Below are positions 1,510 through 63,488 of a DNA stretch of 64,000 nucleotides, one piece after another (position 1 is the stretch's first letter; the number at the start of each line of letters is the position of its first letter). The stretch is taken from contig JBEAYU010000072.1 in NCBI GenBank assembly GCA_041170435.1, positions 6,509-70,508 of the forward strand, written 5' to 3'. Source of the DNA: Bacteroidota bacterium. Its GTDB lineage: Bacteria > Bacteroidota > Ignavibacteria > Kapaibacteriales > Kapaibacteriaceae. Below the pieces are notes generated by a model. That model did no database searches, had not been told where the DNA came from, and saw only the letters and a list, made by a program, of their open reading frames with translations. A program made the position numbers and the translations under genes.

Positions 1510-4420
1510 TCTTGGAACTCTTTCTGGCTCGACTAGGGGGCTTGGCAGCAACCCCACCATGATGCGTATAAAACTCCTTCAGTGCCGCTCCGGTGTGCGA
1601 TGTCGCATGGCTGGAGACAGCATGGGGCGTGCCGGCGGCAACGATGCGACCACCGCGTTCCCCACCCTCCGGACCAACATCAATGACCCAGTCGGCAGAG
1701 CTGATCACATGGAGGTTGTGCTCGATAATCAGGAGCGTATGACCCATGTCAACCAGCCGATCAAAGGCTACCAGAAGTTTCGAAACATCATCAACATGCA
1801 GACCGGTCGTCGGCTCGTCAAAGATGAACAAACGCGATCCCTCGGATTGTGCTTCGAGGTGCCCCGCAAGCTTGACGCGCTGAGCCTCTCCCCCGCTGAG
1901 CTGCGTCGAGGGCTGACCGAGCCGCACGTAGCCAAGTCCGACGTCGCTGAGGATCTTCAACTTGTTGACGATCCTAGGATACTCGACAAAGTGCACCATC
2001 GCCTCATCGACGGTCAGGTTTAGGACGTCGATGATCGTCTTGCCGTTATAGGTGATGGTCCGTGCATCCCTCTTGTAGCGAGTACCCTGGCACGCCTCGC
2101 ACGGAAGCGTGATATCAGGCAGGAACTGCATCTCGATGTCAACCGAGCCAGCCCCCTCACATGCTTCACAGCGGCCGCCGGCCACGTTGAACGAGAAGTA
2201 CCCAGCCTTCCAGCCAAGCTGCTTTGCCACCTGTGTCGAGGCGTACACATCACGGATGAGATCGAAGACCTTGACGTACGTGGCGGGTGTCGACCGAGTG
2301 GACCTACCGATCGGGCTTTGGTCGACCATCTCGACGCCGGTGATATGCTCCAGACCGTCGATCCTTAGGCACGGTCCGGCTTCACCCGAATACGTGCCGA
2401 AGGCTCGCTGAATTCCGGCATAGATCACGTCGTGAACAAGTGAGCTCTTACCCGATCCGGACACGCCAGTCACGACACACATCGTTCCGAGGGGGATCCT
2501 GACCGTGTCGCCCTTCAGGTTGTTATGAAGGGGCTTGATGATGACGATCTCTTGTCCGCTTCCACTGCGGAAAGACTGCTTCGGCGCAACCGTGCGGTGG
2601 CCGCGTAGATACTCGGCCGTCAACGAACTGCCCTCGTTCATCATGTCCTTGAGGCTGCCGCTGAACATCACCTGCCCACCATGCTCCCCCGCGCGAGGAC
2701 CGATGTCGATGACGTGATCGGCGGTACGGATGACGTCGAGATCGTGTTCGACCACGATGACGGTATTGCCAAGCCCCTTGAGCCGCTGAAGAATGTTCAG
2801 AAGTCGGCCCGTGTCACGCGGATGAAGACCGATGCTTGGCTCGTCGAGCACGTACAACGTGCCAACCAATGCACTGCCGAGTGAGGAAGCCAGATTGATG
2901 CGCTGCGATTCTCCTCCCGAGAGAGTATGCGAGAGTCGATCCAGGGTCAAATACTCAAGACCGATCTCACAAAGAAGCCCGAGGCGCCGACGGATCTCCG
3001 ATAGCACCTGACCGGCTATGGCCATTTCTTGATCTGTAAGACGCAGCTCGTCAAAATGCCGACGTGCCTGCTCCAGGGTCATCGATACGACCGACGGAAT
3101 GTTCTGCCCACCAACGAACACCTGCCGAGCTGCTGTGCGCAGTCTCGAGCCTTGGCATCCAGAGCACGTTGTGAACCCACGATACCGCGACAACATCACG
3201 CGGTAGTGCGTCTTGTAGGACTTATCCTCGAGCATCTGAAAGAAGCCGTCAATGCCGATGAACTTTCCAAAACCGCTCCGTACGAGTGACATCTCGTCGG
3301 ACGTCAGTTGACTGAAGGGTTTATCAACCGGTAGTCCAACTGAATCGGCCTCAGCCACGAGATACCGTTGATGGATCCCGAATGTCTCACCACGAAACGG
3401 ATGGATGGCACCACGACGGATCGAAAGCCCACGATCGGGCACAACAAGATTCATGTCCAAACCGACGCTTCTGCCGAAGCCTTGACACTTGGGGCATGCT
3501 CCGAACGGACTGTTGAAGGAAAACAGTCGTGGTTCCGGCTCGACATAGGTGGTGCGGCTTTGTGCGCTTTCGAATCGCGAGGAGAAATACTGGTCGCGTC
3601 CGGTTGCCATATCACGCAGGATCACCCGTCCGCCGCCGGCGTTGAAGGCCTGCTCGATCGAGTCGGTCAGCCGAGTGATCGTCTCGTCATCGTTCCGGAC
3701 GACGATTCGGTCGACCACGACAAAGACCTCCGTGTGCGGCCCGGGAAGCTCGCTGACATCGTCAAGCTCCTGCATCTGCGTCGATGCGCCAAAGAGCAGG
3801 CGTGAATAGCCCCTTGCCAACAGGCTTTCACGCACAATGTCAAGCGTAGCATGTTCCTTCGGTAGCTCGAACAACAGGAACAGCCGCGAGCCCAATGAAT
3901 TCTTCAGTAGATCCTCAACGACCGACTGCGGCGTATCCTTTCGGATCACTTCGCCGGTTTCTTTGTCGATGACCTGACCGATGCGACCGTAAAGCAGACG
4001 CAGATAGTCATACACTTCGGTGGTCGTTCCGATCGTCGATCGGGGATTCTTTGTGAACGTCTGCTGTTCAATGGCAACGGCAGGGGGCAACCCGGTGATG
4101 GTATCCACGTCAGGCTTGTCCATGCGATCCAAGAACTGGCGTGCATACGCGCTGAGGGACTCAACGAATCGACGCTGGCCCTCGGCATAGATCGTATCAA
4201 ATGCCAGTGACGACTTCCCGCTGCCTGAGGGACCCGTGATGACGGTCAGAGCATTTCGAGGAACGTCTACATCCACGTTCTTGAGGTTGTGAACGCGCGC
4301 TCCCCTGACCGAGATGGTCTTTGTGCGCACGGGACGGTTGGCAGGGGCCTCAGATGGTGTCGTTGAGTTCAAACCGAACAACGAAATTAGGGCTTTTCCG
4401 GCCCCAACGGTGCGGATCAT
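1496..4420 (-). CDS. uvrA: Excinuclease ABC subunit A
   Basis: [49 protein letters not shown], two ABC ATPase modules and zinc-finger CxxC pairs. The start was moved to the ATG at 4418-4420 (MIRTVGAG...) because the upstream part of the 1097-aa ORF runs antisense through rpmB. Confidence 0.95.
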
Positions 4421-4430
4421 GGCATGATAC

Positions 4431-4460
4431 TTGCTTATGTGGACAACATCCGGTAATTTG
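4431..4460 (+). promoter_or_regulatory. Candidate Bacteroidota-type sigma-A promoter of rpmB (TTG-N20-TAATTTG)
   Basis: TTG at 4431-4433 and TAATTTG at 4454-4460 match the -33 TTG / -7 TAnnTTTG architecture, 41 nt upstream of the rpmB ATG. Confidence 0.4.
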
Positions 4461-4501
4461 CCGGTCTTGTTTACGTAACTGTCAGGAAATGGAGTCCAAT
4501 C

Positions 4502-13967: not shown

Positions 13968-16900
13968 TCAGCCCTCGATCGCCCTGTTGATCACCGCTGC
14001 CTGCTCAATCTCATGCTTCTTCGCTGAGCCGGTCGCGGGACTCGCAGCGGCGTCACGTCCGACGTATGACAGCTTCTGCCCAGGAGCCAGAACGTCAAGC
14101 AGGTGAGGCTGAACAAACATCCAGGCACCCATGTTCTTGGGCTCTTCCTGGCACCACACCACGTCCGTGGCGTTACCGTAGCGCGCAAGAACGGATGCCA
14201 TGGTCGCCGAGTTGAACGGATGGATCTGCTCGAGTCTCACCAAAGCGACATCGGTGCGACCGGCTTCCTGGCGTTTCTTGGCAAGCTCGTTGTGGATCTT
14301 ACCGGTTGTGATGACCACGCGGCGGACCGCCGACGCATCGACCGATTGATCGTCAATGATCTCTCGGTAGGATCCGTTGACAAGTTCATTGACATCGGAT
14401 TGGAAGATGCGCAGGTATCCTTTCGGCGTCATGACGATAAGGGGCTTGCGCCAAGCTGCCTTTACCTGACGACGCAGCGCATGGAAGTAATTCGCCGGTG
14501 ACGTGAAGTTGCACACGATCATGTTGTCCTGAGCGCACAGCTGCAGGAAGCGCTCCAAGCGCGCACTCGAGTGCTCGGGACCTTGTCCGTCGTAACCATG
14601 TGGCAGCAGTACGGTGACGTTGCTGCGTTGTTGCCACTTTTCTTCTGCACTTGAGATGAACTGATCGAAAACGATCTGTGCTCCGTTGGCAAAGTCACCG
14701 AACTGCGCTTCCCAGATCGTCAAACCATTCTTTGCGATCGTGCTATAGCCGTATTCGTATCCTAACACGGCATACTCCGACAGCGGAGAATCGTAGATGT
14801 GCAACTTCTGCGGAGCGCCCAGCTCATTCAGTGGAACATGCCGTTCCTCGGTGACGCCGTCGCGATGCACTGCCTGACGGTGATTGAACGTTCCACGACC
14901 CGAGTCCTGCCCGGTGATGCGGACAACATGTCCCTGCCGGAGCAACGAACCAAAGGCCAGAGCCTCGGCCATTCCCCACTGCACCACGCCCTGATCGAAT
15001 GATGCCTTACGCTTATCGGCTTCTGCTTTCACCTTCGAGTGGATCGTAAAGCCTTCGGGCACCGAGCAGATCACTTCGGCGATGGCGTGAAGTTCCGAAT
15101 GGGCAACTGCCGTATCGACGTGTGCGAACATATCGACGTGGTCGTGCGAGACCGGAGCCGGCAGTGCACTGGCACGATTGTCATAGGCGACATTGAGTCT
15201 GGCGAGTTCCTCAGAGGAGACCTGTGTGAGCGCATCCGCATTAGCAACACCTTCACTGATGAGCCGCTCTTCGTACACCTTCCGGACGGTCGAAATATTC
15301 TTGATCTTCTTGTACAGCAGCGGCTGTGTGGCCGTCGGATCATCCTGCTCGTTATGACCATACTTGCGATAGCACAACATGTCGATGACCACATCATCGC
15401 CGAAGCGTTCCCTGTAGGCAAAGGCAAACTGTGCCGCTGCGCGGCAAGCCTCAGGATCGTTGCCATCGACATGCAGGATCGGCACCTGCAGAAGCTTGGC
15501 AATGCCGGTGCAGTATGGGGACGAACGCGAGTCTTCGGGCGACGTCGTGAACCCGATCTGGTTATTGATCACTATGTGCATCGTACCGCCGGTGGCATAG
15601 CCGCGTAGTCGGGCCATGTTCAGCGTTTCGGGCACGACACCCTGTCCGGCAAAGGCAGCATCGCCGTGGATCAACACCGGCATGACGCGTCGGTAGGTCT
15701 CGTCACCGATCTCATCATCGAGTGCTCGGGCCATCCCCTCGACAACCGGGTTGACGGCTTCGAGGTGGCTCGGGTTCGGAGCCAAGACGAGTGATAACGA
15801 CGAGCCATCGGAGGCCACGTAGGTACCCTTGGCGCCGAGGTGATACTTCACGTCGCCCGATCCTTGGTAGGAATCCGGATCGATCTTTCCTTCAAACTCA
15901 TTGAAGATCTTCTCAAGGGGCTTGCCCATCATGTTCGCCAGCACGTTGAGACGTCCTCGGTGCGCCATGCCGAGCACCGAAGCGGCCAGCCCGCGCCGAG
16001 CACCGTCAGCCAGCATTTGGTCAAGAATGATCAGAGCGCTTTCGCCCCCTTCAAGAGAGAATCGCTTTGCACCAAGAAACTTGGTGTGTAGGAAGTTCTC
16101 GAGAGTTTCGGCACGGACAAGCTTGCGGTAGGTATCGACCTTTTGTTCGGGGCTGAGACGTGTCTTGAGATGTGTTGTCTCAACGTACTCTCGGATCCAG
16201 TTCTTTTGTTCCGGATCCTGGATGTACATGTACTCGATGCCAATGTGATCGCAGTACGTATCGCGAAGCATGTCGATGATATCGCGCAATGTCGCGCGTT
16301 TCACGCCGCCCAGACCTCCGGTATCGAATTCCCGGTCGAGGTCCCAGATCGTGAAGTTGTAATACCCCGGATCGAGCTCAGGATAATAGTATGCCTCGAG
16401 TCCGAGTGGGTTAACGTCTGCAAGAAGGTGTCCGCGAACACGATAGGCATTGATGAGCTGAACGACTCGACCTTCTTTGTCGATCTCCTCCGGCGTATCG
16501 GGCTGGGCAAAGGGGCTCGCCCCCTTTTCATGCATCCAGCGCATGGGCTCAAATGGGATCTTGATGGCGGCAAAGATCTGCTCGTAGAATCGATGCTCTC
16601 CCAGCAACAGCTGATGGATGTATTGCAGGAACTCGCCCGACTCGGCACCCTGGATCACGCGATGGTCATACGTCGACGTGATCGTCACGACCTTGGAGAT
16701 GGCAAGAGTTGAAAGCACATCCGGCATCATTGCCTGGAACTCTGCCGGATACTCGATCGCGCCGGCGGCCACGATCGTGCCTTGTCCCTCCATCAAACGG
16801 GGAACGGACATCACCGTGCCGATACCACCCGGATTGGTGAGCGTGATGTTTGCCCCAGAGAGCTCCTCTGGCGTGAGTTTGTTGGTACGGGCGCGCTTGA

Positions 16901-17555
16901 TGACGTCATCATAGGCCGCAGCATACTCTTCAAAGCTGAGGCGCTCAGCATTCTTGATGCTCGGTACAAGCAGGATTCGCGATCCATCCTTTCGCGTGGT
17001 ATCGACGGCAAGTCCAAGATTGATCCCGCCACGCTCAATGCGTACCGGCGTACCATCTTGGACGCCGTACGAGTTCTTCATGTTCGGATATCTCTCGGCG
17101 GCGCGGATGATGGCCCAGCCAAGGATGTGCGTGAACGACAACTTGTTGCGACGCTTCCGAGCAAGGAACGTGTTGGCAATGCGGCGGTTCTCTTCGAGCG
17201 CTTTGACGGGGATGTTTCGCACACTCGTGGCCGTTGGCACGCCGAGCGAGGCTTCCATGTTCTGCGCGATCTTACCGCCGATCGAAGACAACGGAACGAT
17301 CTCATCACCGGCAACCATGGGCGGAATGCGTGTGCCCGTTGTGGCTGCAAGAGTCGGCGCACTTGGAGCGACGACCACTGGTGTAGAACGTGGTGCCGGC
17401 GTGGGTGCAGACGTGCCATTGACGACTGCCGTTGGTACGGGTGCTTCGGGTGTGTAGCTGGCAAAGAAGTTTTGCCATTCGGGCGATACGGACGATGGGT
17501 CTCTGAGGTACTCGAAGTACAGTTCGTCAACGTAAGCGCTGTTCATCGACATCAT
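13968..17555 (-). CDS. kgd: Multifunctional 2-oxoglutarate decarboxylase/dehydrogenase E1 fused to an E2-type acyltransferase core (Kgd/OdhA architecture)
   Basis: The N-terminal roughly 350 aa carry an E2 catalytic core (ITSTYDHRVIQGAESGEFL) and no lipoyl domain. The remainder is E1o (GMAHRGRLNVLAN, LIHGDAAFAGQGVV, EAQFGDFANGAQ). Start candidates are ATG 17555, 17552 and 17546 (the ORF track uses TTG 17591). Confidence 0.9.
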   Translation of the reverse strand: MMSMNSAYVDELYFEYLRDPSSVSPEWQNFFASYTPEAPVPTAVVNGTSAPTPAPRSTPVVVAPSAPTLAATTGTRIPPMVAGDEIVPLSSIGGKIAQNMEASLGVPTATSVRNIPVKALEENRRIANTFLARKRRNKLSFTHILGWAIIRAAERYPNMKNSYGVQDGTPVRIERGGINLGLAVDTTRKDGSRILLVPSIKNAERLSFEEYAAAYDDVIKRARTNKLTPEELSGANITLTNPGGIGTVMSVPRLMEGQGTIVAAGAIEYPAEFQAMMPDVLSTLAISKVVTITSTYDHRVIQGAESGEFLQYIHQLLLGEHRFYEQIFAAIKIPFEPMRWMHEKGASPFAQPDTPEEIDKEGRVVQLINAYRVRGHLLADVNPLGLEAYYYPELDPGYYNFTIWDLDREFDTGGLGGVKRATLRDIIDMLRDTYCDHIGIEYMYIQDPEQKNWIREYVETTHLKTRLSPEQKVDTYRKLVRAETLENFLHTKFLGAKRFSLEGGESALIILDQMLADGARRGLAASVLGMAHRGRLNVLANMMGKPLEKIFNEFEGKIDPDSYQGSGDVKYHLGAKGTYVASDGSSLSLVLAPNPSHLEAVNPVVEGMARALDDEIGDETYRRVMPVLIHGDAAFAGQGVVPETLNMARLRGYATGGTMHIVINNQIGFTTSPEDSRSSPYCTGIAKLLQVPILHVDGNDPEACRAAAQFAFAYRERFGDDVVIDMLCYRKYGHNEQDDPTATQPLLYKKIKNISTVRKVYEERLISEGVANADALTQVSSEELARLNVAYDNRASALPAPVSHDHVDMFAHVDTAVAHSELHAIAEVICSVPEGFTIHSKVKAEADKRKASFDQGVVQWGMAEALAFGSLLRQGHVVRITGQDSGRGTFNHRQAVHRDGVTEERHVPLNELGAPQKLHIYDSPLSEYAVLGYEYGYSTIAKNGLTIWEAQFGDFANGAQIVFDQFISSAEEKWQQRSNVTVLLPHGYDGQGPEHSSARLERFLQLCAQDNMIVCNFTSPANYFHALRRQVKAAWRKPLIVMTPKGYLRIFQSDVNELVNGSYREIIDDQSVDASAVRRVVITTGKIHNELAKKRQEAGRTDVALVRLEQIHPFNSATMASVLARYGNATDVVWCQEEPKNMGAWMFVQPHLLDVLAPGQKLSYVGRDAAASPATGSAKKHEIEQAAVINRAIEG

Positions 17556-17593
17556 GGTCGAAGGACTTTCAAGGTGAGAAATGTGGTGCAAAA

Positions 17594-18367
17594 CTACGGT
17601 TTTTCGTGCATCCCGATGAACGCCAGCATCCTACCGGATCGACTGCCATCGCGCCTGAATGAATGATAGCGCGTGTTGCCGATGGTACACGATCGATCGA
17701 CCGTGATGTTGCCCTCCGACACACCCAGCTCTGTGAGCTGATGAATGATCGCTTGATGATTGTCGAAGTACCACTTCGGCGTCGACTGACGCATGTCTTG
17801 ACTCACGGAATCCGGCACTGGGGTGCAGAATTCGCCGAGGACATCGGCCACGTCGCGGCCCACCTCATAGGCACTGCCGGAAGCGCATGGCGAGAGCCAT
17901 GCACGGATGTTCTTGACCTCGCATCCGACGTCACGGAGAAGACGTTCGATCATCCTACCGCTGATATTGGCGGCAGTTCCACGCCATCCGCTGTGGACGG
18001 CGGCAATCGCGCCACGCACCGGGTCGTGTGTGAGCACACCGCAGCAATCCGCAAGCTTGACGCCCAGCAAGATTCCGCGGGTGGTCGTGTAAAGACCGTC
18101 GGCAGGTCTTCGGCGAAGCTCTGCGATGTCGTCAGCGTGTCTGACATCGACAATATCTGCCCCATGAACCTGGTTGACGGTTGCGATCATGGTTCGGCTC
18201 CATCCTACGTGAGCTGAGAGAAGCTCAAATGAACGCTCGACGCGGACAGCATCTGCCGAGTCAGACACGGAGAACGTTGCGCCCGGCCATGGAAGCACCG
18301 ACGTGTCAACGATGCTCATTCCCGAGATCACGTCCGGATGGTCAACAGCAGGTATCAGTGCGATCAT
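17594..18367 (-). CDS. pgeF: Peptidoglycan editing factor PgeF (YfiH/DUF152, laccase-domain protein)
   Basis: QVHGADIV, ADGLYTT, KLADCCGVL and AVHSGWRGTAANI motifs. Confidence 0.85.
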   Translation of the reverse strand: MIALIPAVDHPDVISGMSIVDTSVLPWPGATFSVSDSADAVRVERSFELLSAHVGWSRTMIATVNQVHGADIVDVRHADDIAELRRRPADGLYTTTRGILLGVKLADCCGVLTHDPVRGAIAAVHSGWRGTAANISGRMIERLLRDVGCEVKNIRAWLSPCASGSAYEVGRDVADVLGEFCTPVPDSVSQDMRQSTPKWYFDNHQAIIHQLTELGVSEGNITVDRSCTIGNTRYHSFRRDGSRSGRMLAFIGMHEKP

Positions 18368-20136
18368 GGTCGTGTGGTATCAGGTGGTGCCGTAAGAGCC
18401 CCCTTCATGCGACGGCCCCAGAGGCCCAAACCTACGACGGCGTCGGGTCGTTTCTCCAGTGTCCAGTTCCGTGCGGCATGATCGATCGGTCCGGCAGGGG
18501 CACCGATGAATGCCACGATGGTACGTCCTTGTCTTTGGCCGGTGACGATGAGTCCGGCCGGGCGTTCAGTGATGTGTGCAGGCAAATCGCGCCGTCCATG
18601 GTCGCGCAGGGTCATGAGCACGATGGTCACCATCAGCACGGCACCCACGCACCTGACCATGAAGCCCGGCCAGCTTCGGGCCGCCAATGGCCAACACAGG
18701 CCAAGCGTGACGATGACACTGAGCCAGATAACACTAACGACATTCATTCCTCGCGTCAGGTCGAGTGCTGCGACGGTTGCCACCACATCGGCAGAACGCA
18801 CCAGCACGGTCAGCCACCAGCCCAGGGCATTCTCCACCACTGGCAGTGGCATCAGAGCCAGCCCAAGTCCCAACACGAGGGATCCACTCATCAGAGGAAC
18901 GACCACGAGGTTTGCCAACAACGCCAGCAGACTGACGGACCCGAACAGGACTGCCGACGGGATCGTGACGCCGACGGTCGCCCCCCAGGTGACGGCCACG
19001 GCATCCACCACGAGGCTCGCTGATGGACGTCTCTTGATGACGAGCATGTGCAGCAAGCGCCGACACGGCGGAACCAGAATGATCATGGCTAGAGTTGCCG
19101 TCACCGACAGTAGAAATCCACCGCTGACAATCGACGTGGGATCGAAACCAATGATCACCAGAATGCTGAGCATCAAGTGATTGATCGGGTTCACGTCCCG
19201 TTCCCAACGCGAACCGATGAGTGCTCCGATTCCCATGATGGCGCTTCTGACGGCAGGGGGCTCGCTGCCGCTCAGGAACGTGTACAGCGCTACGGAGCCG
19301 ATGCCCAGCAGCATGAGCACCATGTTGGGACGAACGCCAATCAGAAGCATCACCAGCCATGTAACGATGGCAACATGCGAACCGCTCACCGAGAAGATAT
19401 GCGCCGTGCCGCTGAGCCGGTATGCACGCACGGATTCGACATCGATGCGCGACCTATCGCCGATCACCAGTGCCACGGCAATGGCCGAGACGTCAGCCGG
19501 AAGACATGATTCAAGCCTCCTGACCATCATCTGCCGCGCCCGGCAGAGCCATATTGTCGCATCCGACGGCGGGCCCGCGTCGAATCCCCTTCCACGCTCG
19601 AGCAGAAATGCCACCCCGATCGATCGCAGATGGTCCGGTTCAGAGAACTCTCCCGGAAGTGTTGGATGGCGCGGACGCCGAAGCAGTCCCGTCACACTCC
19701 GTCGACGTCCAACGTATATCGTGCTGTCAGCCCCCTTTTCGGTGACCAACACCCGAGCATGCGTGCACGGCGCGCATTGGGCATCGACCTCCGCGCTCAA
19801 AACGTAGCGGATCCGGTTGGGTCCACGACGGATCACCTGCTCCACGACACCGTCACAGCGGGCGGGGCTCGAGTACACCCTCGCGCAGGGACCCGAAGAG
19901 CCTCCAGCCGCCACACCGAGTTCATCGGTGATGACGCTTGCCGAGCAGGCTCCCAGAGCCATGGATGTCCAAACGATCGACGTGGCTTGCAGGCGCAGGC
20001 GCAAGGCCAATAGGCCCAAACAGAGCAATACGCCGGCCAGGGACAGTGAAATCGTCCCCTCGAGTCCGAGTGACAAGACAAGCCACGTCGAGCTCACCAT
20101 CATCACAACGGGCATCACCAGTGGAAGGCGCTGCAT
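18364..20136 (-). CDS. comEC: ComEC/Rec2 family competence membrane protein (no recognisable metallo-beta-lactamase domain)
   Basis: Polytopic, with SGTAHIFSVSGSHVAIV, the competence-domain signature. Its stop overlaps the pgeF start (ATGA). No HxHxDH motif occurs in the C-terminal tail. Confidence 0.8.
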   Translation of the reverse strand: MQRLPLVMPVVMMVSSTWLVLSLGLEGTISLSLAGVLLCLGLLALRLRLQATSIVWTSMALGACSASVITDELGVAAGGSSGPCARVYSSPARCDGVVEQVIRRGPNRIRYVLSAEVDAQCAPCTHARVLVTEKGADSTIYVGRRRSVTGLLRRPRHPTLPGEFSEPDHLRSIGVAFLLERGRGFDAGPPSDATIWLCRARQMMVRRLESCLPADVSAIAVALVIGDRSRIDVESVRAYRLSGTAHIFSVSGSHVAIVTWLVMLLIGVRPNMVLMLLGIGSVALYTFLSGSEPPAVRSAIMGIGALIGSRWERDVNPINHLMLSILVIIGFDPTSIVSGGFLLSVTATLAMIILVPPCRRLLHMLVIKRRPSASLVVDAVAVTWGATVGVTIPSAVLFGSVSLLALLANLVVVPLMSGSLVLGLGLALMPLPVVENALGWWLTVLVRSADVVATVAALDLTRGMNVVSVIWLSVIVTLGLCWPLAARSWPGFMVRCVGAVLMVTIVLMTLRDHGRRDLPAHITERPAGLIVTGQRQGRTIVAFIGAPAGPIDHAARNWTLEKRPDAVVGLGLWGRRMKGALTAPPDTTRP

Positions 20137-35080: not shown

Positions 35081-35081
35081 A

Positions 35082-46394: not shown

Positions 46395-47095
46395 GTCGAG
46401 ACACCAACCTTCTGCGATCGTTGCAGCAGGATCAGGTACAGTACATCAAAGAATGCGACCGTCAAGTAGAGTGTGGTCAAGAAGAGATTGTCGGGGTACT
46501 TCGTTTGGAACATCACACTGATGATCCCCGTGCCCACAAATTTTGTCCAGGCCAGCAGCCTCGAGGACTCTTGTGAACCTTTGGACAGCAGGAGTCCGAT
46601 GAATGCAATGGACATGACTACGTTGACGAGGTAGTTGGTTATCACGGCCATCGGCAGGTCATACTGCACCATGAAAGATGAGCACAGGGATATGCTGAAG
46701 ATGAAACTCACGGTGATAAGCCATCCGAAGTTCTGCCTCACGAAGCTTGCTTTGAACTGATCGCGACCGTAACGAAAGAGATTGAGGATGATCACGATAT
46801 CAAGCAACATCCACATCCAATAGGCAAGAACAAGTGCCTTTCCCATGTCCGGTACAAAGAAGATTGCCGCCCCAACCTCTGCTCCGAAATTGCAGATCAC
46901 TGCGGCAACAGGAATGATGAGTTCTTTCTTTCTGAATGCCGCACGCAGAATGATGACGTATGCAATGATCCAGGCCACAGCTCCGATGGTAAAGAGCGCG
47001 ATCTGCCATGGATGGTAGTTCGTCGTGTCAAACCATGGATGCTGACTCTGTAGATACTCCCAGATTGGCATGCTAACCCCGCTGATACGTGTCAT
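46391..47095 (-). CDS. Hypothetical 7-TM membrane protein; possible PaxB/Pyr4-like integral-membrane terpenoid cyclase
   Basis: 234 aa with seven hydrophobic helices. TM1-TM2 read WIIAYVIILRAAFRKKELIIPVAAVICNFGAEVG, and an acidic residue sits in the last helix (AFFDVLYL). An alternative start is ATG 47071. Confidence 0.6.
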   Translation of the reverse strand: MTRISGVSMPIWEYLQSQHPWFDTTNYHPWQIALFTIGAVAWIIAYVIILRAAFRKKELIIPVAAVICNFGAEVGAAIFFVPDMGKALVLAYWMWMLLDIVIILNLFRYGRDQFKASFVRQNFGWLITVSFIFSISLCSSFMVQYDLPMAVITNYLVNVVMSIAFIGLLLSKGSQESSRLLAWTKFVGTGIISVMFQTKYPDNLFLTTLYLTVAFFDVLYLILLQRSQKVGVST

Positions 47096-47109
47096 ATCTC
47101 AACCAGCCT

Positions 47110-48825
47110 TCAGGCCGGTGTGCGTCCGAAACGATGACGCAGAAAGGAAAGAACGGACAGTCCGAATTCGACCAGGCAGTTCATGGGTGGACGCCATGGT
47201 AGCCCCCTATCATAGCGTCGCTTGTCGAGCGCTCTCAGCGCCTGCAGGGCAACTGGCTCGTGGATGTCCCAGACCGCACATTGTTGGGCCCTATTGCCTG
47301 TAGACTCGAGAATTGCATTGACGGCCCGTCGTGCAGCTTCGTTAGCTGCCTCCATGGTGGCCAGGTCCGTATTGGTCCGTACGTAGTCAGAAGCGAGAAA
47401 GAGATTATCGATCGCCGAATAGGCCTCTGGCCGGTCGTCCCATGATCGCACGGTATTGACAAGCAGCGGCTCTTCATTCATCTCGCGTTCGTGCGGCAGC
47501 GCCCTGATATCTCCATCAATATGCCAGTACTCGATCATGTCGTCAGACAAGACAACGGTACCATCCACATTGAGAGCATCACAGAGTTGCTTCCATACCT
47601 CTATGCGGATATCCTCGTGCGAGCATTCGCGGGCGATCTTTCCGTTCGAACCCGGAGTGTCCCATGCCGAAACATCAACCGACAGGATGCATCGTACCCG
47701 ACCGTTGCCGCGTTGTTCGATATTATATCCCGGCCAGAACTGCAGCTGGGATATTGACGTCAGTGCCCACGGGGAATCTGAATAAATGGCATGCCCGTGT
47801 ACGATTGGTCTATCGGTGTTCAGGTAGTACTGCACGCCATTCATCCAGGCCACGCTGGGAGCCAAGCGCACGATTCCCTGTAGGTTGGAATCAAGCGCCA
47901 TCAATTCTTCGGTCATCAGTTTGGCTGCGCGCTCAACCGGAACCGCGAGCACGTAGATGTCGGCTTGAACTTCATGAAGGTGGTTTGAGGAATCCTTGAC
48001 CGTTGCCGATGCGATGGTGGATCCGCCAACGGTGAGCTTCTCAACGGTATGGCCAAGATGAAAGCGCACTCCGCACTGTTCAAGATACTCTCTCCAAGGC
48101 GTGAGCCACGCATCATTCGTTGGTCCATTCAGAACCCTGTCCGTGTGCACTCCCGGACTGGACATGTTGAAGAGCAATTGAAGGAAAATGTTCCCGCCTG
48201 TCTTTGTACTTGCCGAGTGGGCATTGGCGGCAACCAGCGTTCGTGTTAACCCCTGAACAAGCAATGCCCGATAGGTGTCACTGAACCGATCAGCCTGCAA
48301 GAAGTCCCACCAGGCAATTCTCTCGTACTCATCGCGACGCCGCTCCCGGCAGCTGGTCATCAACTGCCACACTCTCTCGGCGAAGAAATCCATCTCCTCG
48401 TCGGAGAGACCGGTATCAGCCGTCAGGTCGCCAAAAAGTACTCTTACGTCTGCGATGGTCTTTGGAAAATTGACGATCGCCGTGAGCGATGGTTTCCCCT
48501 TTCGCGCAACGAGTACCCGATCTGTCGGCGTAAGGTTGTCGAACACGGTTGCAACCTTTCCGTCGGCCCGGCGATAAGGGATGCGTGACATGGTATCTGT
48601 CACGTGACGATAGAAGCCGGGAAAGAATCGGAAGCCGTGCTCTCCCGGAAGAGACCTATCAGCATGCATCTGATTCGTCCCCGGCACATCAACACTGCGC
48701 GCCTTGCCACCGACATACACATGATGCCGGTCATAGACGTCAACAGTGAAGCCCCGCTCAACGAGCTCATGCGCTGCGCTCAGGCCGGCCACTCCGCCGC
48801 CAAGCACAGCAACTCTATGTGCCAT
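47110..48825 (-). CDS. FAD-dependent oxidoreductase, amine-oxidase / phytoene-desaturase-like
   Basis: VAVLGGGVAGLSAAHELVERGFTVDVYD....GGKARS is a Rossmann dinucleotide fold. GEHGFRFFPGFY parallels the PDS/ZDS segment. The ATG at 48825 is preceded by GGGGAGG. The 57-nt upstream extension in the ORF track was not used. Confidence 0.75.
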   Translation of the reverse strand: MAHRVAVLGGGVAGLSAAHELVERGFTVDVYDRHHVYVGGKARSVDVPGTNQMHADRSLPGEHGFRFFPGFYRHVTDTMSRIPYRRADGKVATVFDNLTPTDRVLVARKGKPSLTAIVNFPKTIADVRVLFGDLTADTGLSDEEMDFFAERVWQLMTSCRERRRDEYERIAWWDFLQADRFSDTYRALLVQGLTRTLVAANAHSASTKTGGNIFLQLLFNMSSPGVHTDRVLNGPTNDAWLTPWREYLEQCGVRFHLGHTVEKLTVGGSTIASATVKDSSNHLHEVQADIYVLAVPVERAAKLMTEELMALDSNLQGIVRLAPSVAWMNGVQYYLNTDRPIVHGHAIYSDSPWALTSISQLQFWPGYNIEQRGNGRVRCILSVDVSAWDTPGSNGKIARECSHEDIRIEVWKQLCDALNVDGTVVLSDDMIEYWHIDGDIRALPHEREMNEEPLLVNTVRSWDDRPEAYSAIDNLFLASDYVRTNTDLATMEAANEAARRAVNAILESTGNRAQQCAVWDIHEPVALQALRALDKRRYDRGLPWRPPMNCLVEFGLSVLSFLRHRFGRTPA

Positions 48826-48914
48826 CAGTGTGCCTCCCCATGCGGTCACGTAAGACGAATGAAAATATAGCTTAATCGACAATCCGAAACATCATCGGGT
48901 CCGCGACGTCAGCG

Positions 48915-49184
48915 TTATGATCGTCTCCAGCGTTCCAGGCGTGGTATACTTCGTGTTGCCAGCCATGCAACGAAACCATTGTATCCGCTCTTCTTCATTT
49001 GCTCGATGCAGAACATCTGCATCTTGGCAGGAGTATCAATGAAAGTTGGCGTAAGAAACACGCCACCTTGATAGCACATGGAACAGAACTTTTCACTTTT
49101 TGTTCCGTCGGCTTCAGTCCCACCACCTTGGCGATCCTTTTTCAACGGAAAACCGCAACTCTGACAATACTTGAAGGTTGACAT
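48915..49184 (-). CDS. Putative zinc-ribbon domain protein (Zn_ribbon_2-like)
   Basis: YCQSCGFPL....KFCSMCYQGG gives two CxxC pairs. The overall pattern matches the small zinc-ribbon family from memory. Confidence 0.6.
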   Translation of the reverse strand: MSTFKYCQSCGFPLKKDRQGGGTEADGTKSEKFCSMCYQGGVFLTPTFIDTPAKMQMFCIEQMKKSGYNGFVAWLATRSIPRLERWRRS

Positions 49185-49256
49185 GAAAGCGCTTCCTCAG
49201 TAATGGACGACGAACATATCGAATTGAGCTCTTGTCTTCGATACGTCATCCTTCGG

Positions 49257-51980
49257 TTAAGGGGCTTCCAAGGCTGAACTTGCCTGGACTGGACTGTTCT
49301 CGCGTTCCAGACGTTCGGCAACCAGATCCAGCAGCCCCCTGAATGGGATGCCAAGACTGTGGCACAGAGCTGATTCACAAAGTGTATTAACGCCGATACC
49401 CATCGCCGTCGCATCATAGAATGGATGTGATGCCACCTCAATGCGCACGTCATCATTGGCAGACGAGACAACGTCGGGATGCCTCAGTCCGTGTATGCCT
49501 CCCATTCCGCAACAGGTGGCAGTGGATGGCACAATGACGTTAAAGGCAAGTTGCCTTACCACGGCAATGAGTCTGTCGGTGCTTCCCTGTTTTGCGGCAC
49601 CGCAGCCGGCATGCACGACGATCGGGTGCACAGACTTACTGATCGGTACTCGCGGCAGGACCATCTCTGCAAATCCCACTTGGTCGATGACGCGGAGACC
49701 GCGGCGGCGCGCATCTTCTGCAAGCGCGGCTGCACATGTCGAGGCATCTATCAATACCGGAACATTCCGTCCTCCCATAGCGGCAAGAACATCCTCGAGA
49801 AGCACTCTGCGGGAAACGTTGGCGGCATCGTCAAAGCCCTTTGACGAAAGGGGCTGTCCACAGCAGCCTCCCGACGTCGAAAGCACACGAAGTGCGATTC
49901 CGGCTGCTCGAGACAGGGCTATAATCGACTCCTGCAGTGAGCGCTGCGAGGAGCCGTGTTTCACCACGGAGCACACGCACGAAGGAATGTAAAGCACGTC
50001 GAACGCCCCGGCCGCCGATCCCGCGACGCCGTTCGGAGCGGTAAGACCACGCATGAATCCCGGCGCCCGAGCGCCAACCTTCTCGCTGAGTCGAAGCATC
50101 GTGCGTGCCGCCATACGAAGGATGTTCATGTTCCTGGCTGCTACGCCGGCCACGAGGACAGTCATGCGGCGAGGCCGTCTGCGTTGTCTGACCATTTTTC
50201 CGGTGTCAATTCCCACCGGACAGACAGTGGCACAAATTCCGTCGACTGCACATGAGTCAACAACATCGTGCTTGGCCTCGCGCCGTAGCTCGCTACGCAG
50301 TGCCGGATCATCGGCATTGATCACCATCTCGCGCTCGATCACGATACGCTGACGCGGAGTGAGCGTAAGCTGCCGGGTCGGACATACGTGCTCGCAGAAT
50401 CCGCACTCAATGCAGGCATCCGCCACAGCACCGAGCTCGGTATCAAGCACTGGCACGGGTTTGATGTTTCGCACATGCACCAGCGGATCGGCATTGATGA
50501 TCACATCAGGATTCAGCACGTTCATTGGGTCAAGTACTGACTTGATGCGGCACATGATCCGGTAGGCCCGCGTGCCCCATTCTCGCCCGACAAACGGTGC
50601 CATGTTTCGACCCGTGCCGTGCTCGGCTTTGAGCGATCCACCGTGACAGCCGACAACAATCTCGGCGATGCGTTCCATGAAGGCGGCATATCGATCGATC
50701 TCTCCCGCCTGGGAGAAGTCCTGGCACACGACAAAGTGGATGTTGCCATCCTTGGCGTGTCCGAACACGATTCCGTCGTGGTACCCGAACTCCCGAAAGG
50801 CCCCTTGCACATCTCTGACCAGCATGGCAAGTCGTTCCGGAGGAGCTGCGATGTCTTCGTTGATCATCGTACTTCCCGGCGGACGCATCGCTCCAACCGT
50901 TGGCATCAGCCCCTTGCGGAGCTTCCACAGAATCGCCTGCTGGCGCGGGTCCGACGTCCACCTGACCCCATCCAATTCAGGGGGCTCACAATCATGAAAC
51001 TCAACGAGCAGTGCGGCCGATCCCTCTTGGTCAACTCGATACTCATCGGGCGTAGTCGCTAGGTGGGCAAAGGAACGCAATGATGCATCGTCCATGAGCT
51101 CAATTGCAGCCGCACCGGCCGCACGCCAAAACTCAACGCTATGGCATGCACCATCGAGGGAGTCATAGACAATCAGTGCCGTCTGTTTGCGCTGCGCATC
51201 AGCCACAGTGCGCAACGTGACGTGTTCGATGAATCCGAGTGTGCCCTCACTGCCAACCAACAGTCGTGCGATAATGCGGGCAGGCTGGTCTTCATCGAGT
51301 ACGGCGTTCAGCGAGTACCCAATGGTGTTCTTGATCCGATACTTGCGTCGGATCAGCGCAACCAGCTCGTCATCGGCCCTGACTTCGTCTCGCAGAGCAG
51401 CAATGGCAGTATGCAGTGTTGGATGTGATTCGCGCAGATGTTCATCGGCTTGGTCTGACGACGTATCGATACGAGTTCCGTCCGCCAACACATAGGCCAT
51501 CGAATCAAGCGTATGATAGGAGTTCTGCGCCGTTCCGCAGCACATTCCGCTGGCGTTGTTGGCAACGATCCCTCCAACCATGGCGGCCATCAGAGATGCC
51601 GGATCAGGACCGAGTTTACGTCCGTACCGATGCAGTTGTGCGTTCACGCGCGCGCCCGTTACGCCGGGCTGCATGCGCACGCGCTTGCCATCGTCGAGGA
51701 TCTGCACATCAGACCAGCCCCTTGACAGGTCGACAATGATGCCGTCGGTGACGGCCTGACCCGACAGACTTGTCCCACCGGTGCGGAAGGTGCAATGACG
51801 ACCGTGGCGATGACACCATGCAAGAAGCGTGCGCAGCTCCTGAAGATCCCTCGGACGGACAATCGCTTGTGGCACAAGCCGGTAGAGCGAAGCGTCGTGA
51901 GCATACGCCAGACGATCAATGATACGTCTGGTTACCGATGAGCCGAGCAGTGCTTGCAGCTCGTCAAGGGGCTCACTCAT
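49257..51980 (-). CDS. FAD-binding oxidase fused to 4Fe-4S and CCG domains (GlcD/GlcF- or D-lactate-dehydrogenase-like)
   Basis: N-terminal FAD-binding PCMH-type region (FRTGGTSLSGQAV). A central ferredoxin-like CIECGFCEHVCP and a second Cys cluster (CAVDGICATVCP). C-terminal CCG-type cysteine motifs (GGCCGQP, ATCCGMGG). Confidence 0.85.
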   Translation of the reverse strand: MSEPLDELQALLGSSVTRRIIDRLAYAHDASLYRLVPQAIVRPRDLQELRTLLAWCHRHGRHCTFRTGGTSLSGQAVTDGIIVDLSRGWSDVQILDDGKRVRMQPGVTGARVNAQLHRYGRKLGPDPASLMAAMVGGIVANNASGMCCGTAQNSYHTLDSMAYVLADGTRIDTSSDQADEHLRESHPTLHTAIAALRDEVRADDELVALIRRKYRIKNTIGYSLNAVLDEDQPARIIARLLVGSEGTLGFIEHVTLRTVADAQRKQTALIVYDSLDGACHSVEFWRAAGAAAIELMDDASLRSFAHLATTPDEYRVDQEGSAALLVEFHDCEPPELDGVRWTSDPRQQAILWKLRKGLMPTVGAMRPPGSTMINEDIAAPPERLAMLVRDVQGAFREFGYHDGIVFGHAKDGNIHFVVCQDFSQAGEIDRYAAFMERIAEIVVGCHGGSLKAEHGTGRNMAPFVGREWGTRAYRIMCRIKSVLDPMNVLNPDVIINADPLVHVRNIKPVPVLDTELGAVADACIECGFCEHVCPTRQLTLTPRQRIVIEREMVINADDPALRSELRREAKHDVVDSCAVDGICATVCPVGIDTGKMVRQRRRPRRMTVLVAGVAARNMNILRMAARTMLRLSEKVGARAPGFMRGLTAPNGVAGSAAGAFDVLYIPSCVCSVVKHGSSQRSLQESIIALSRAAGIALRVLSTSGGCCGQPLSSKGFDDAANVSRRVLLEDVLAAMGGRNVPVLIDASTCAAALAEDARRRGLRVIDQVGFAEMVLPRVPISKSVHPIVVHAGCGAAKQGSTDRLIAVVRQLAFNVIVPSTATCCGMGGIHGLRHPDVVSSANDDVRIEVASHPFYDATAMGIGVNTLCESALCHSLGIPFRGLLDLVAERLERENSPVQASSALEAP

Positions 51981-61092: not shown

Positions 61093-61128
61093 GAATTCGT
61101 TCCGATGGTTCGGTGAAAGTGAGAACGA

Positions 61129-62253: not shown

Positions 62254-63488
62254 GAGAAGCGAATGCGTGGATCGACCAGCGCGAGCATGAAGTCAGAAAT
62301 GATCGAACCGATAAGGTTGATCGTGATCGTGATAACGGCAAAGGCGAAGGCAACGTTGGTATCACGCGTTCCAATGGCCTCGAACGAGAGTCGTCCGATC
62401 CCATCAATGTTGAACGCCGTTTCCACCAGATAGCCCCCTGCCAAGAAGATGCCGATGACGCCGCCGATGGAGGCCACGAGTGGAATGATGGAGTTGCGCA
62501 TGGCATGCAGCCAGATCACGCGGTCCTCACGCAGCCCCTTTGCATAGGCGGTCCGAACGAAGTCCTGACCAAGCGTTTCCATGAGCGAGTTCTTCATCAG
62601 CAACGTGATGGAGGCGAACCCACCGAGCGTGTAGGCCACCGTGGGCAGAACGAAGTACCATGCACGGTCGATGATCTGTTCCATGGCCGAGAGCTCTGCG
62701 TAGTCGCCCGACTGGAAGCCACCTGTCGGAAAGAGATCGATGCCCGAGCCACCACCGAGGATCACCAGCAGCACGCCGCCGAGGGCCCAACCGGGCACGG
62801 AGAATGCGATAAAGACGATGCTCGACGAAACGACGTCAAACCGACTACCGTGGCGCAGGGCCTTTTGTGTGCCGAGGTAGAAGCAGACCACGTACGTGAT
62901 CACGAAACTCATCAACCCGAACTGCATCGAAACCGGTAGACGTTCACTGATAAGTTCGGTGACGGGCTTGCGGTACCGGAACGAGTCGCCAAAGTCAGCC
63001 GTGAAGATCCCGGCCACTTCGCGTTGGTACAACCACACGCTATTGGGCTTCTGCGACGGATCCACAAACCAGTCCTCAAGTGGCTTGCCGGGATCACTGA
63101 CGGCATAGACCATGATCTGTCCGCTGGCAGGGTCCTTCCGGGGAATGACGCGCAGACCGGAGCCAACGTTGCGTTCTTCTCCGAGTACGGCAAGGTAGTC
63201 GTTGACCGGACGCGGGAACAGGCCCAGCCACATGAGGTAGCGCTTCCAGATAGGTTCATTCACCTGGTAGTAGCGCTGCAGGGCTTCGAGCTGACTTGGC
63301 GGGATGGACATCGACTCGGTTCCGAGTGCCGAGCCACCGCCCTCAGCCCCCTGCCCTTTGCGAAGGGCATTGAGCTGTTGATCATACGGTCCGCCCGGAG
63401 CAAACTGCACGATGAAGAACACGACGAAGGTGGCGCCCAAGAACGTTGGGATCGCCAGCAGCAGACGACGGATGATATACTGGAGCAT
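62250..63488 (-). CDS. Peptide ABC transporter permease (OppB/DppB-like) with a large periplasmic insertion
   Basis: MLQYIIRRLLLAIPTFLGATFVVFFIV and DFVRTAYAKGLREDRVIWLHAMRNSIIPL. Confidence 0.85.
   Translation of the reverse strand: MLQYIIRRLLLAIPTFLGATFVVFFIVQFAPGGPYDQQLNALRKGQGAEGGGSALGTESMSIPPSQLEALQRYYQVNEPIWKRYLMWLGLFPRPVNDYLAVLGEERNVGSGLRVIPRKDPASGQIMVYAVSDPGKPLEDWFVDPSQKPNSVWLYQREVAGIFTADFGDSFRYRKPVTELISERLPVSMQFGLMSFVITYVVCFYLGTQKALRHGSRFDVVSSSIVFIAFSVPGWALGGVLLVILGGGSGIDLFPTGGFQSGDYAELSAMEQIIDRAWYFVLPTVAYTLGGFASITLLMKNSLMETLGQDFVRTAYAKGLREDRVIWLHAMRNSIIPLVASIGGVIGIFLAGGYLVETAFNIDGIGRLSFEAIGTRDTNVAFAFAVITITINLIGSIISDFMLALVDPRIRFS

Follow-up and report, generated by a model that had tools for sequence, protein, structure and literature searches.

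ARGGGGC, an abundant oriented word spaced separately on each strand in a Kapabacteria-like lineage of Bacteroidota

The seven-base word ARGGGGC is about ten times commoner than chance on both strands of the genome studied here and in most of the family to which its host belongs. Two copies of like orientation tend to keep apart, a repulsion that extends to about 1 kb; copies of opposite orientation are independent. The word appears to be a DNA-level signal under selection or recombination-linked drive, which maintains about one copy per 1.4 kb, each strand being filled on its own. It looks like a selected signal that is read on one strand and needed about once per 1–3 kb per strand. Tentatively, we regard it as a lineage-specific "self" tag for recombination or uptake and assign to this reading a probability of roughly 0.38.

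To our knowledge, hyper-abundant "genome tags" are understood in few cultured groups only, where they serve DNA uptake (USS/DUS), recombination (Chi) or segregation (KOPS). ARGGGGC is a very clear new example, this time in an uncultured, Kapabacteria-like lineage of the Bacteroidota. The independent filling of the two strands, combined with exclusion on the same strand, was not found described for other genome tags in the literature searched, and nothing relevant was found on the word itself or on Kapabacteria.

Abundance and definition of the word

In the window, i.e., the whole stretch of 64,000 nt that was analysed, the octamer AAGGGGCT and its complement occur 25 times (15 +, 10 −); dinucleotide shuffles yield 0.89 copies on average and never more than 3. 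An earlier note on this DNA had reported the over-representation of this octamer, and its copies lie where the note had placed them, the sole difference being a start at 2528 instead of 2527. A form with five G, said to be about as common, indeed is: AGGGGGCT has 28 copies (15 +, 13 −), and the approximate positions given for it agree to within about 20 bp. Both octamers count among the copies of the core heptamer ARGGGGC, of which the window has 90 (41 +, 49 −; Table 1). The whole genome (2.48 Mb) holds 3,486 copies of this core.

Table 1. Copies of ARGGGGC and related features in the window (nucleotide positions)
Feature	Position	Strand	Remarks
ARGGGGC, starts 1–21	1535, 2528, 4082, 6576, 8495, 10505, 11866, 14439, 15915, 16510, 19255, 20659, 21833, 23285, 23999, 24858, 26800, 27212, 28191, 30511, 31031	+	
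ARGGGGC, starts 22–41	33962, 34520, 34980, 37252, 38191, 39597, 40518, 41783, 44437, 49259, 49848, 50979, 51966, 52953, 56455, 57022, 59702, 60080, 61300, 62235	+	
GCCCCYT, starts 1–25	38, 2151, 2773, 3809, 7994, 9389, 10242, 11173, 13055, 16044, 16519, 18398, 19730, 20262, 21793, 22398, 23980, 25354, 26496, 26883, 28894, 30293, 30790, 30881, 32321	−	ARGGGGC copies of the − strand
GCCCCYT, starts 26–49	33528, 37505, 37887, 39227, 40362, 41734, 42898, 47202, 49334, 50800, 50909, 51717, 52563, 52835, 56474, 57493, 57967, 58532, 59582, 60610, 60864, 62433, 62534, 63346	−	ARGGGGC copies of the − strand
kgd (oxoglutarate dehydrogenase) copy, antisense	14439–14445	+	conserved in 14/20 species (column 3236)
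kgd copy, antisense, read K-P-L	15915–15921	+	same aligned position in 18/20 species (column 1760)
kgd copy, sense strand, read E-G-G	16044–16050	−	same aligned position in 17/20 species (column 1631)
kgd adjacent opposite-orientation pair	16510–16516 and 16519–16525	+ and −	aligned columns 1165− and 1156+
comEC-like gene	18364–20136	−	match confined to the competence-domain part of the family model
AGGGGGC in recA (20333–21418)	20659–20665	+	holds the only GGG glycine codon of recA
Motif-poor stretch	44444–49258		one copy (47202, − strand) in 4.8 kb

The word is sharply defined as A-(A/G)-GGGG-C, with an eighth base preferred in the order T~G>A>C. Position 2 is the only one that tolerates alternatives (A or G). 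Any change at the six fixed positions reduces the ratio of observed to expected counts (O/E) to 0.4–1.2, the exception being AAGGGGG, which overlaps the motif. The flanks carry no more than 0.07 bit per position beyond ±3.

Genome-wide and with both strands summed, a third-order Markov model predicts 48 copies of AGGGGGCT and 61 of AAGGGGCT, whereas 890 and 780 are observed; for AGGGGGC and AAGGGGC the numbers are 2,002 versus 274 expected and 1,484 versus 352 expected. The core word exceeds this model 4- to 19-fold and synonymous-codon shuffles 6- to 17-fold. In coding DNA the two octamers occur 656 and 747 times, compared with 69 and 45 after synonymous shuffling within genes. The Markov count and the codon-aware null, both of which the earlier note had called for, leave the enrichment standing. 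The excess is similar whatever the reading frame, on the sense and the antisense strand, and inside as well as outside coding DNA, as the note had claimed for frame and strand. Non-coding DNA makes up 14.7% of the genome and contains 15.2% of the copies; 85% of the copies are within genes. In recA, glycine is encoded by GGC (17), GGT (10), GGA (3) and a single GGG, and this GGG at 20660 lies inside a motif copy, as had been noticed before.

Could codon or dipeptide usage, a dispersed repeat element or the assembly have created the excess artificially? Some copies do sit in favoured peptide contexts; the [K/Q/E]-G-A sites, for instance, carry the motif in 67% of cases. Synonymous and codon-order nulls are, however, exceeded 6- to 22-fold, and Markov orders 1–4 together with these shuffles rule out codon, dipeptide and composition effects. 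A REP- or MITE-like element is ruled out by the near-informationless flanks and by the predominance of genic over intergenic copies. Furthermore, over 40 genomes that were assembled independently share the word. The chance of an artefact is negligible. That selection acts on the DNA, not on codons or peptides, is strongly supported by the codon nulls, the frame independence, the conservation of sites and their occupancy (see below).

Spacing and orientation

The pair correlation of copies in the same orientation is 0.09 at less than 25 bp, 0.3–0.7 up to 500 bp and 1 from 1 kb upwards. For copies in opposite orientation it is 0.8–1.4. Therefore, neighbouring copies alternate between the strands: in the genome 2,213 adjacent copies change strand versus 1,180 that share it (p = 2.5e-71), and in the window the ratio is 62 to 27, with a median same-strand gap of 1.1–1.2 kb. 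The alternation is also seen in a second congeneric species and in one further genus.

The same behaviour is seen at 13,233 potential sites, i.e., those where synonymous codons could spell ARGGGGC. Their occupancy rises from 3% to 38% with growing distance to the nearest copy of the same orientation, but stays flat at about 24% with distance to copies of opposite orientation. Interference is confined to true ARGGGGC words and absent for one-off variants and control words.

The independent filling of the strands leaves few kinds of reader, namely those that act on a single strand or travel one way. The tag would be recognised in an orientation-specific manner, presumably by a protein, and the nearest correctly oriented copy would suffice. 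A second copy nearby in the same orientation would then bring no benefit and not be maintained, while copies on the other strand would be counted separately. Same-strand exclusion is also a purely computational test for any genome: it could serve to find such signals in metagenomes and to define them by their behaviour, not by their abundance.

The earlier note had further seen inverted pairs at a terminator. This part did not survive: genome-wide, close inverted pairs (up to 30 bp) number 72 versus about 74 expected from density, there is no terminator-type excess, and the example pair at 21792/21833 lies inside the recX frame, not at a terminator. With opposite pairs at chance level, a role in terminators or as inverted pairs is ruled out.

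The absence of strand skew reported in the note, in turn, was confirmed in three ways. Motif orientation does not correlate with GC skew in the host genome. Forward and reverse counts are balanced per contig and under-dispersed (chi2 42.4 on 75 df). In a complete relative, which was sampled, the motif is co-oriented with GC skew 57:43, which equals the prediction from base skew alone. Long-range compositional asymmetry around oriented copies was not seen either. A skew of the Chi or KOPS type, beyond base skew, is ruled out by these data.

Conservation of sites and distribution in the family

Individual sites are kept at orthologous positions across 20 species that share only 68–81% nucleotide identity. 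The copies in kgd are examples (Table 1). Control heptamers are conserved in 17.5% of the species on average, and in 25% where the amino acids are invariant. Close sites of the same orientation exclude one another when species are compared. Four other species have, instead of the kgd copy at 16510, one of the same orientation 32 bp away, and no species has both of these alternatives (columns 1165− versus 1133−); a second pair of alternatives is 1156+ versus 1154+.

This exclusiveness bears on another possibility, namely that the word has no function of its own and results from mutation or repair biased by sequence context, as in very-short-patch repair. The slight depletion of one-off variants (O/E 0.4–0.9) would be expected if near-matches were converted to the motif, and a bias would explain why the enrichment disregards coding constraints. 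Such a bias, however, acts site by site. It can neither produce a 1-kb repulsion confined to copies of the same orientation nor make neighbouring sites mutually exclusive between species, and no conserved methylase or Vsr-type system was found. We consider it highly improbable.

ARGGGGC is enriched in all 28 other species searched of the host genus and in four further genera. In the comparison with relatives, which the earlier note had suggested, most genera of the family thus bear the word, five carrying it and one lacking it, and it is absent from 12 genomes of 10 other, neighbouring families. The genus without ARGGGGC has a word of its own: GGCGGCAWGG is found in 3 of its 4 genomes at 15–21 times the control, with one copy per about 11 kb per strand. 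At the low density of this dialect, same-strand interference is undetectable (G046). The density of ARGGGGC differs six-fold among species, the spacing being 2–3 kb in sparser relatives; a parallel variation has been reported for DUS dialects (PMC3630211). A separate dialect in a low-count species of the host genus was considered and rejected, since G002 has the same motif at lower density.

A possible role in uptake and recombination

The DUS of Neisseriaceae and the USS of Pasteurellaceae are, like ARGGGGC, short lineage-specific words that occur about once per kb, strand-balanced and without replichore bias, within genes in all frames, and more rarely in acquired DNA. DUS dialects are paralleled by the different word of the sister lineage. 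The likeness to uptake sequences proposed in the earlier note accordingly holds as far as density, strand balance, restriction to one lineage and the second dialect of the sister genus are concerned. In other respects it breaks down. DUS and USS comprise 9–12 bases plus flanks versus only 7–8 here; their enrichment is hundreds-fold or more versus 10–30-fold; and they show an intergenic and a terminator-pair excess, both absent for ARGGGGC, which weighs against the tag. Even spacing was reported for USS (PMC1939737). Orientation may be a further difference: the spacing of ARGGGGC is constrained separately for each orientation, and uptake by H. influenzae was reported to be independent of USS orientation (PMC1939737).

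The machinery differs, too. DUS and USS depend on a type IV pilus with the PilQ secretin, the ATPases PilT and PilF and a receptor pilin such as ComP; no type IV pilus machinery, secretin or PilT was found in the host. In its genome, rated 100% complete, neither a secretin (Pfam PF00263) nor a member of the PilT family (TIGR01420) was matched, nor any PilT/PilB-type ATPase. The host thus lacks the one type of machinery known to take up DNA by its sequence, a further point against the tag. We know of no uptake sequence in the Bacteroidota (Kapabacteria), the phylum of the host.

In favour of the tag, the host does encode RecA, DprA, a ComEC-like protein and a helicase-nuclease resembling AddA. 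The ComEC-like match (G000:C72:25121-26056, window 18613–19548) reaches 98.6 bits, which is below the family cut-off. The AddA-like protein has 1,126 residues, without an adjoining AddB gene. The ComEC-like, DprA and AddA-like genes are, however, not limited to motif-bearing lineages, which again does not favour the self tag. The earlier note had counted comEC in favour of uptake; as homologues occur in related families without the motif, the gene is no evidence for it.

Chi, the signal of RecBCD and AddAB, shares other features with ARGGGGC. It is an asymmetric word (5–8 bases) with an excess of copies in the core genome. The enzyme reads it on one strand while moving, and what counts is the first copy met in the right orientation. 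Characterised Chi sites are mostly oriented one way relative to replication, whereas ARGGGGC is balanced on every contig and in the complete relative; every characterised Chi has a replication-related skew that the self tag would lack. ARGGGGC is also denser and more strongly enriched. The Chi sequence of the AddAB of Bacteroidota is unknown (PMC2887965).

The self tag we favour would combine traits of an uptake sequence with those of Chi and be recognised on single-stranded DNA. It would aid homologous recombination of single strands or DNA ends derived from incoming or broken DNA. Against it stands, in addition, that a motif of seven bases separates self from foreign DNA only about ten-fold, and that no reader protein was identified among the genes examined.

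A possible role in mismatch repair

The self tag also leaves the family-wide decay of the MutL nuclease unexplained. The CPHGRP metal-binding motif of MutL is missing in 15 of 15 family genomes examined, and most of them also lack DQHA(X)2E(X)4E; in other families of the order both motifs are kept in 19 of 21 genomes. In the host (G000), RPASATERIFFE stands in place of DQHA(X)2E(X)4E and THHTPFGQP in place of CPHGRP. In G027 and G075 the motifs were lost independently. MutS1 is intact, and no match to MutH (Pfam PF02976) was found in G000. In bacteria without MutH the nick normally comes from the C-terminal domain of MutL (PMC11840563, PMC2965676). The coincidence of this loss with the motif raises the question of how the new strand is nicked during mismatch repair.

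One answer, somewhat unlikely in our judgement, is that mismatch repair enters or cuts the DNA at ARGGGGC, which would then play the part that GATC has in the MutH system. On a call from MutS-MutL, a putative nickase would cut one defined strand at the word. Since each orientation would serve one nascent strand only, a copy would have to lie within reach of excision at every point of both strands, regardless of replication direction. The model predicts spacing that saturates strand by strand, no skew between replichores and the same coverage inside and outside coding DNA, and all of these are observed. There is a precedent in E. coli and relatives, where MutL is also devoid of endonuclease motifs, hence needs an external source of nicks, and sites would be required no farther than about 1–2 kb from any mismatch, on whichever strand is new, again without replichore bias. 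GATC, however, is palindromic and not enriched, while ARGGGGC is asymmetric and highly enriched; and of MutH, Dam or another conserved methylase, on which the GATC system or strand marking would rely, none was found in the host.

Further points tell against repair. No candidate for the nickase was found, and mutS and mutL are flanked by housekeeping genes, with no nuclease among them. MutL motifs are also lost in family members without ARGGGGC (G043, G049), and DQHA is retained in the motif-rich G054 and G051. A strict link between decay and word is therefore rejected, the decay being family-wide. The association essentially rests on one evolutionary event. A repair range of 1–2 kb would call for denser copies than those of the sister dialect, with one per about 11 kb per strand, or those of the sparse species. 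That the family swapped the MutL endonuclease for a sequence- and strand-specific incision system with ARGGGGC as its site is rather doubtful. If true, evolution would have arrived independently, for a second time, at a "MutH-like" way of incising the strand, and the need for an asymmetric word to carpet both strands would account for the extreme enrichment and the even spacing strand by strand.

The earlier note had named repair and restriction as alternatives. The former gained some ground through the loss of the MutL motifs; the latter is unlikely, given the sporadic occurrence of the one methylase module that is complete. Its β-class methylase (contig C45), the single complete one, was rejected as a reader for belonging to a sporadic restriction module, as its partner of 172 aa is found in only 4 of the 51 genomes of the family. 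A γ-class methylase is sporadic, too, and represented in the host by a fragment at a contig edge; methylases of the C5 or Dam class were not found.

Other possible tracking proteins, and motif-poor DNA

The word could finally be where some other DNA-tracking protein binds or stops. Such a protein might organise the nucleoid or be of the SMC type, or it might be a nuclease or translocase of a defence system that leaves DNA with correctly oriented "self" words alone. The oriented, saturating spacing, the restriction to one lineage with a second dialect and the rarity in probably acquired DNA would suit any directional tracker. KOPS and other architecture-imparting sequences, which are oriented G-rich octamers read by the translocases FtsK and SpoIIIE, resemble ARGGGGC in kind; they are strongly skewed towards the terminus, though, whereas ARGGGGC has no skew beyond base composition. 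Ordinary double-strand binding proteins would not treat the orientations independently, and a candidate gene was not found. We consider a tracker of this type improbable.

Low-GC bins of the genome are poor in ARGGGGC, and such DNA has probably been acquired. The motif-poor stretch of the window (Table 1) comprises its longest motif gaps on both strands and has a GC content of 53.5%, compared with 57.3% for the window.

Abundance and definition of the motif

The earlier note had counted about 25 copies of the octamer AAGGGGCT and its complement AGCCCCTT. A pattern search of the window finds exactly 25, at the same positions apart from one that starts at 2528 instead of 2527, and dinucleotide shuffles of the window contain 0.89 copies on average. 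The five-G form AGGGGGCT, which had been thought to be about as frequent, occurs 28 times. The core common to both forms, ARGGGGC (GCCCCYT on the opposite strand), is found 90 times, 41 on the plus and 49 on the minus strand. The sole GGG codon of recA indeed lies inside a motif copy. Contig C72, to which the window belongs, comes from a 2.48-Mb assembly (93 contigs, 56.7% GC; here called the source genome), in which the words of the first table lead the list of over-represented 7- and 8-mers under Markov models of order 1 and 3. At order 4, AGGGGGC and AGGGGGCT are in the lead and AAGGGGC and AAGGGGCT come fourth.

Counts of the motif words in the source genome and in sampled relatives (g1, genus of the source genome; g14–g20, other genera of its family; control, reversed word)
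Word	Genomes	Observed	Expected or control
AGGGGGC	source genome, both strands summed	2,002	274 (third-order Markov)
AAGGGGC	source genome, both strands summed	1,484	352 (third-order Markov)
AGGGGGCT	source genome, both strands summed	890	48 (third-order Markov)
AAGGGGCT	source genome, both strands summed	780	61 (third-order Markov)
AGGGGGCT	g1, first sample, 18 species	142–981	10–45 (control)
AGGGGGCT	ten other families of the order, 12 genomes	control level	
any comparable word	G020, from one of these ten families	not found	
ARGGGGCT	g1 (28/28), g14, g16, g18 (10/10)	strongly enriched	
ARGGGGCT	g19	moderately enriched	
ARGGGGCT	g20 and one g15 genome	weakly enriched	
ARGGGGCT	g17 and second g15 genome	absent	
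GGCGGCAWGG	g17, 3 of 4 genomes (G046, G047, G048)	601, 342, 618	34, 23, 30 (control)

The motif is sharply bounded. It begins with A, continues with either A or G, and ends in GGGG and C. With C or T at position 2 the enrichment is just 1.5–1.8-fold, and a substitution at any other position yields observed/expected ratios of 0.4–1.2; the sole exception is AAGGGGG, which overlaps AAGGGGGC. As eighth base T and G are about equally preferred, followed by A and then C, and runs of six G are avoided in the genome. The flanks display a weak preference for GGC upstream and nothing more, which rules out that the motif stems from a dispersed repeat element.

Low-GC DNA is poor in the motif: in the source genome, bins of 48–52% GC contain 1.9 copies per 5 kb, those of 58–61% GC 8.6. 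The stretch of the window that is emptiest on both strands, with one copy in 4.8 kb at 53.5% GC, may be more recently acquired DNA. It overlaps a four-gene membrane module that had already been pointed out.

Coordinates of the features discussed
Feature	Location	Remark
sole GGG codon of recA	window 20660	in motif copy at 20659
emptiest stretch	window 44444–49258	
kgd	window 13968–17591	
726-codon frame	window 21422–23602	directly after recA
β-class DNA methylase	C45:27610–28903	outside the window
MutL	C88:68681–70576	outside the window

Coding context

Gene calls were our own and rough (1,697 ORFs, which take up 85% of the genome). By these calls, non-coding DNA makes up 14.7% of the genome and holds 15.2% of the copies. 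In coding DNA all three frames are occupied, with 1,541 copies in sense and 1,383 in antisense direction. Shuffling synonymous codons within genes leaves 480 core copies, as compared to 2,928 observed, and 69 and 45 copies of the two octamers instead of 656 and 747; shuffling the codon order leaves still fewer. Since both shuffles stay far below the observed numbers, dipeptide and codon usage, which the earlier note had named as an explanation that would undo its case, do not account for the excess. The word is carried by 22% of the 13,233 coding positions with synonymous potential for it and by 67% of the [K/Q/E]-G-A sites, yet GGG represents only 14% of the glycine codons.

Interference between copies on the same strand

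A new property of the motif is that each strand is filled independently and that copies on the same strand exclude one another. Between adjacent copies of the source genome orientation alternates 2,213 times and repeats 1,180 times (p=2.5e-71). The pair correlation of copies in the same orientation is 0.09–0.10 at 0–25 bp, close to what the neutral background would give; it increases to 0.3–0.55 within 200 bp, to 0.5–0.7 within 500 bp and to about 0.8 between 500 and 700 bp, and reaches 1 at about 1 kb, whereas that of opposite orientations is 0.8–1.4 at all distances. Same-strand gaps (mean 1,386 bp, CV 0.82) are too rarely short and too rarely long for an exponential distribution. Of the synonymous-permissive sites, 3% are occupied at less than 50 bp from the nearest copy in the same orientation and 38% beyond 1 kb; relative to the nearest copy in opposite orientation, occupancy is flat, 21–27%, to 1 kb. 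Between 25 and 150 bp, divergent opposite pairs (GCCCCYT ... ARGGGGC) outnumber convergent ones, 199 versus 152, a small and unexplained asymmetry.

The interference can also serve as a functional assay of candidate words. The extensions of ARGGGGC by T, G, A and C all show it (0.35, 0.44, 0.56 and 0.52, respectively). No interference is seen with ACGGGGC or ATGGGGC (0.91–0.92), with one-off variants (0.93–1.05) or with unrelated abundant words. In the g1 species G033 (51% GC) alternation prevails by 227 to 134 (CV 0.70), in G050 of another genus by 127 to 66 (CV 0.76), and more weakly in the sparse G002, by 133 to 109. In these three genomes the spacing scale increases with the mean gap, which looks like gap-filling with diminishing returns, not like a fixed ruler.

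The absence of strand skew suspected earlier was borne out in three ways. In 10-kb bins of the source genome motif orientation is not linked to GC skew (rho 0.11). On individual contigs the forward and reverse counts lie closer together than a coin toss would place them (chi2 42.4 on 75 df). In twenty 20-kb pieces sampled around the complete genome of G050, from a sister genus, the motif is co-oriented with GC skew 122:91, and these 57% are predicted by a base skew of ±4% alone for a word of five G and one C. Chi and KOPS, in contrast, are skewed with respect to replication; ARGGGGC is not, beyond base skew.

Mutation bias acts site by site, and the interference pattern is therefore hard to obtain from it. 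With a probability of roughly 85%, we consider ARGGGGC a selected signal that is read strand-specifically. A copy would be worth the gap that it fills on its own strand. The interference fits such a value and suggests a reader that acts on one strand or moves one way, for which the first correctly oriented copy would suffice.

Conservation of individual sites

A codon alignment of kgd from 20 species of g1 (68–81% nucleotide identity) comprised 17 sites in all. The word stands in the same columns in 18, 17, 14, 11, 11, 9 and 9 species. The five motif sites of the source genome are conserved in 42–89% of the species; its control heptamers are kept in 17.5% on average, and those with invariant amino acids in 25%. 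By this alignment, individual sites are old. Species that lack a given site often have a copy in the same orientation at a distance of a few bases up to 32 bp, and in none of the species do both members of the pairs 1133-/1165-, 1361+/1370+ or 1154+/1156+ occur together. What is preserved, therefore, is "a copy here on this strand".

Distribution and a second dialect

In a RecA comparison the source genome falls among Kapabacteria/"Kapaibacterium" MAGs at 75–78% identity. Its relatives were sampled at 200–600 kb each. The g17 word GGCGGCAWGG is even on both strands (e.g., loci L174–L205), is often extended to A-N-GGCGGCA-W-GG, and reads as G-G-K, or as L-A-A from the opposite strand. It is at background level in the ARGGGGC genomes, that of the source included. 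At its one copy per 5.5 kb, same-strand interference was not detected. The split among genera parallels the dialects of uptake sequences.

Candidate readers

A "self" tag for recombination or uptake, recognised on single strands or starting from DNA ends, is our tentative proposal. It agrees with how dense the motif is and how this density differs six-fold between species, with the existence of dialects, and with the low numbers in acquired DNA; against it stand the lack of Chi-like skew and of known uptake machinery. The source genome has DprA and the ComEC-like gene cited earlier, but the latter occurs also in families without the motif. Neither a secretin (PF00263) nor a PilT/PilB/GspE-family ATPase (TIGR01420) has a match in this genome, which is rated 100% complete. 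An AddA/RecB-like helicase-nuclease (1,126 aa, with C-terminal nuclease motif) is found across the order; no AddB gene adjoins it. The Chi of Bacteroidota AddAB is not known (PMC2887965).

The methylase search revealed no enzyme of the C5 or Dam class. A β-class N6/N4 DNA methylase of 270 aa overlaps a 172-aa ORF without Pfam match. As the latter is confined to 4 of 51 family genomes, the two probably form a small mobile restriction-modification module. The γ-class methylase is a contig-edge fragment, and its class is sporadic in the family.

MutS1 is intact. MutL carries RPASATERIFFE in place of DQHA(X)2E(X)4E and THHTPFGQP in place of CPHGRP and, judged from these replacements, has lost its endonuclease signature. 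Among 36 genomes (the source and 35 relatives, L208–L280), CPHGRP is missing in 15 of 15 family members, with DQHA degraded in most, and both motifs are kept in 19 of 21 genomes of other families; in G027 (family f10) and G075 (f9) the loss seems to be independent. This family-wide loss of the MutL nuclease would match a role of ARGGGGC as mismatch-repair incision site, which would also account for the need on both strands and the scale of about 1 kb in the source genome. Several points tell against such a role: nickase and strand-marking methylase are both missing (MutH is absent by search, and the neighbourhoods of mutS and mutL contain no nuclease candidate), and sparse species and the sparse dialect match poorly. 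Moreover, the loss extends to family members without ARGGGGC (G043, G049), and DQHA is retained in motif-rich ones (G054, G051); the link is therefore one at family level, a single evolutionary event. We rank the self tag slightly above the incision site.

Other repeats and oddities

The source genome also contains a tandem heptamer family, (GGTTACA)n, with words such as GGTTACAGGT at 100–150 copies. In its k-mer tables GTCTCGCACC, ACCTGCGGTG and AGGTCTCGCA reach 127–163 copies each; such numbers hint at a long family of repeats, which could be a CRISPR array or interspersed elements of another kind. Finally, the 726-codon frame after recA matches RecX in its N-terminus (residues 1–206) and models of OmpA-like peptidoglycan-binding lipoproteins in its C-terminus, a predicted fusion that is odd for a cytoplasmic RecA regulator.
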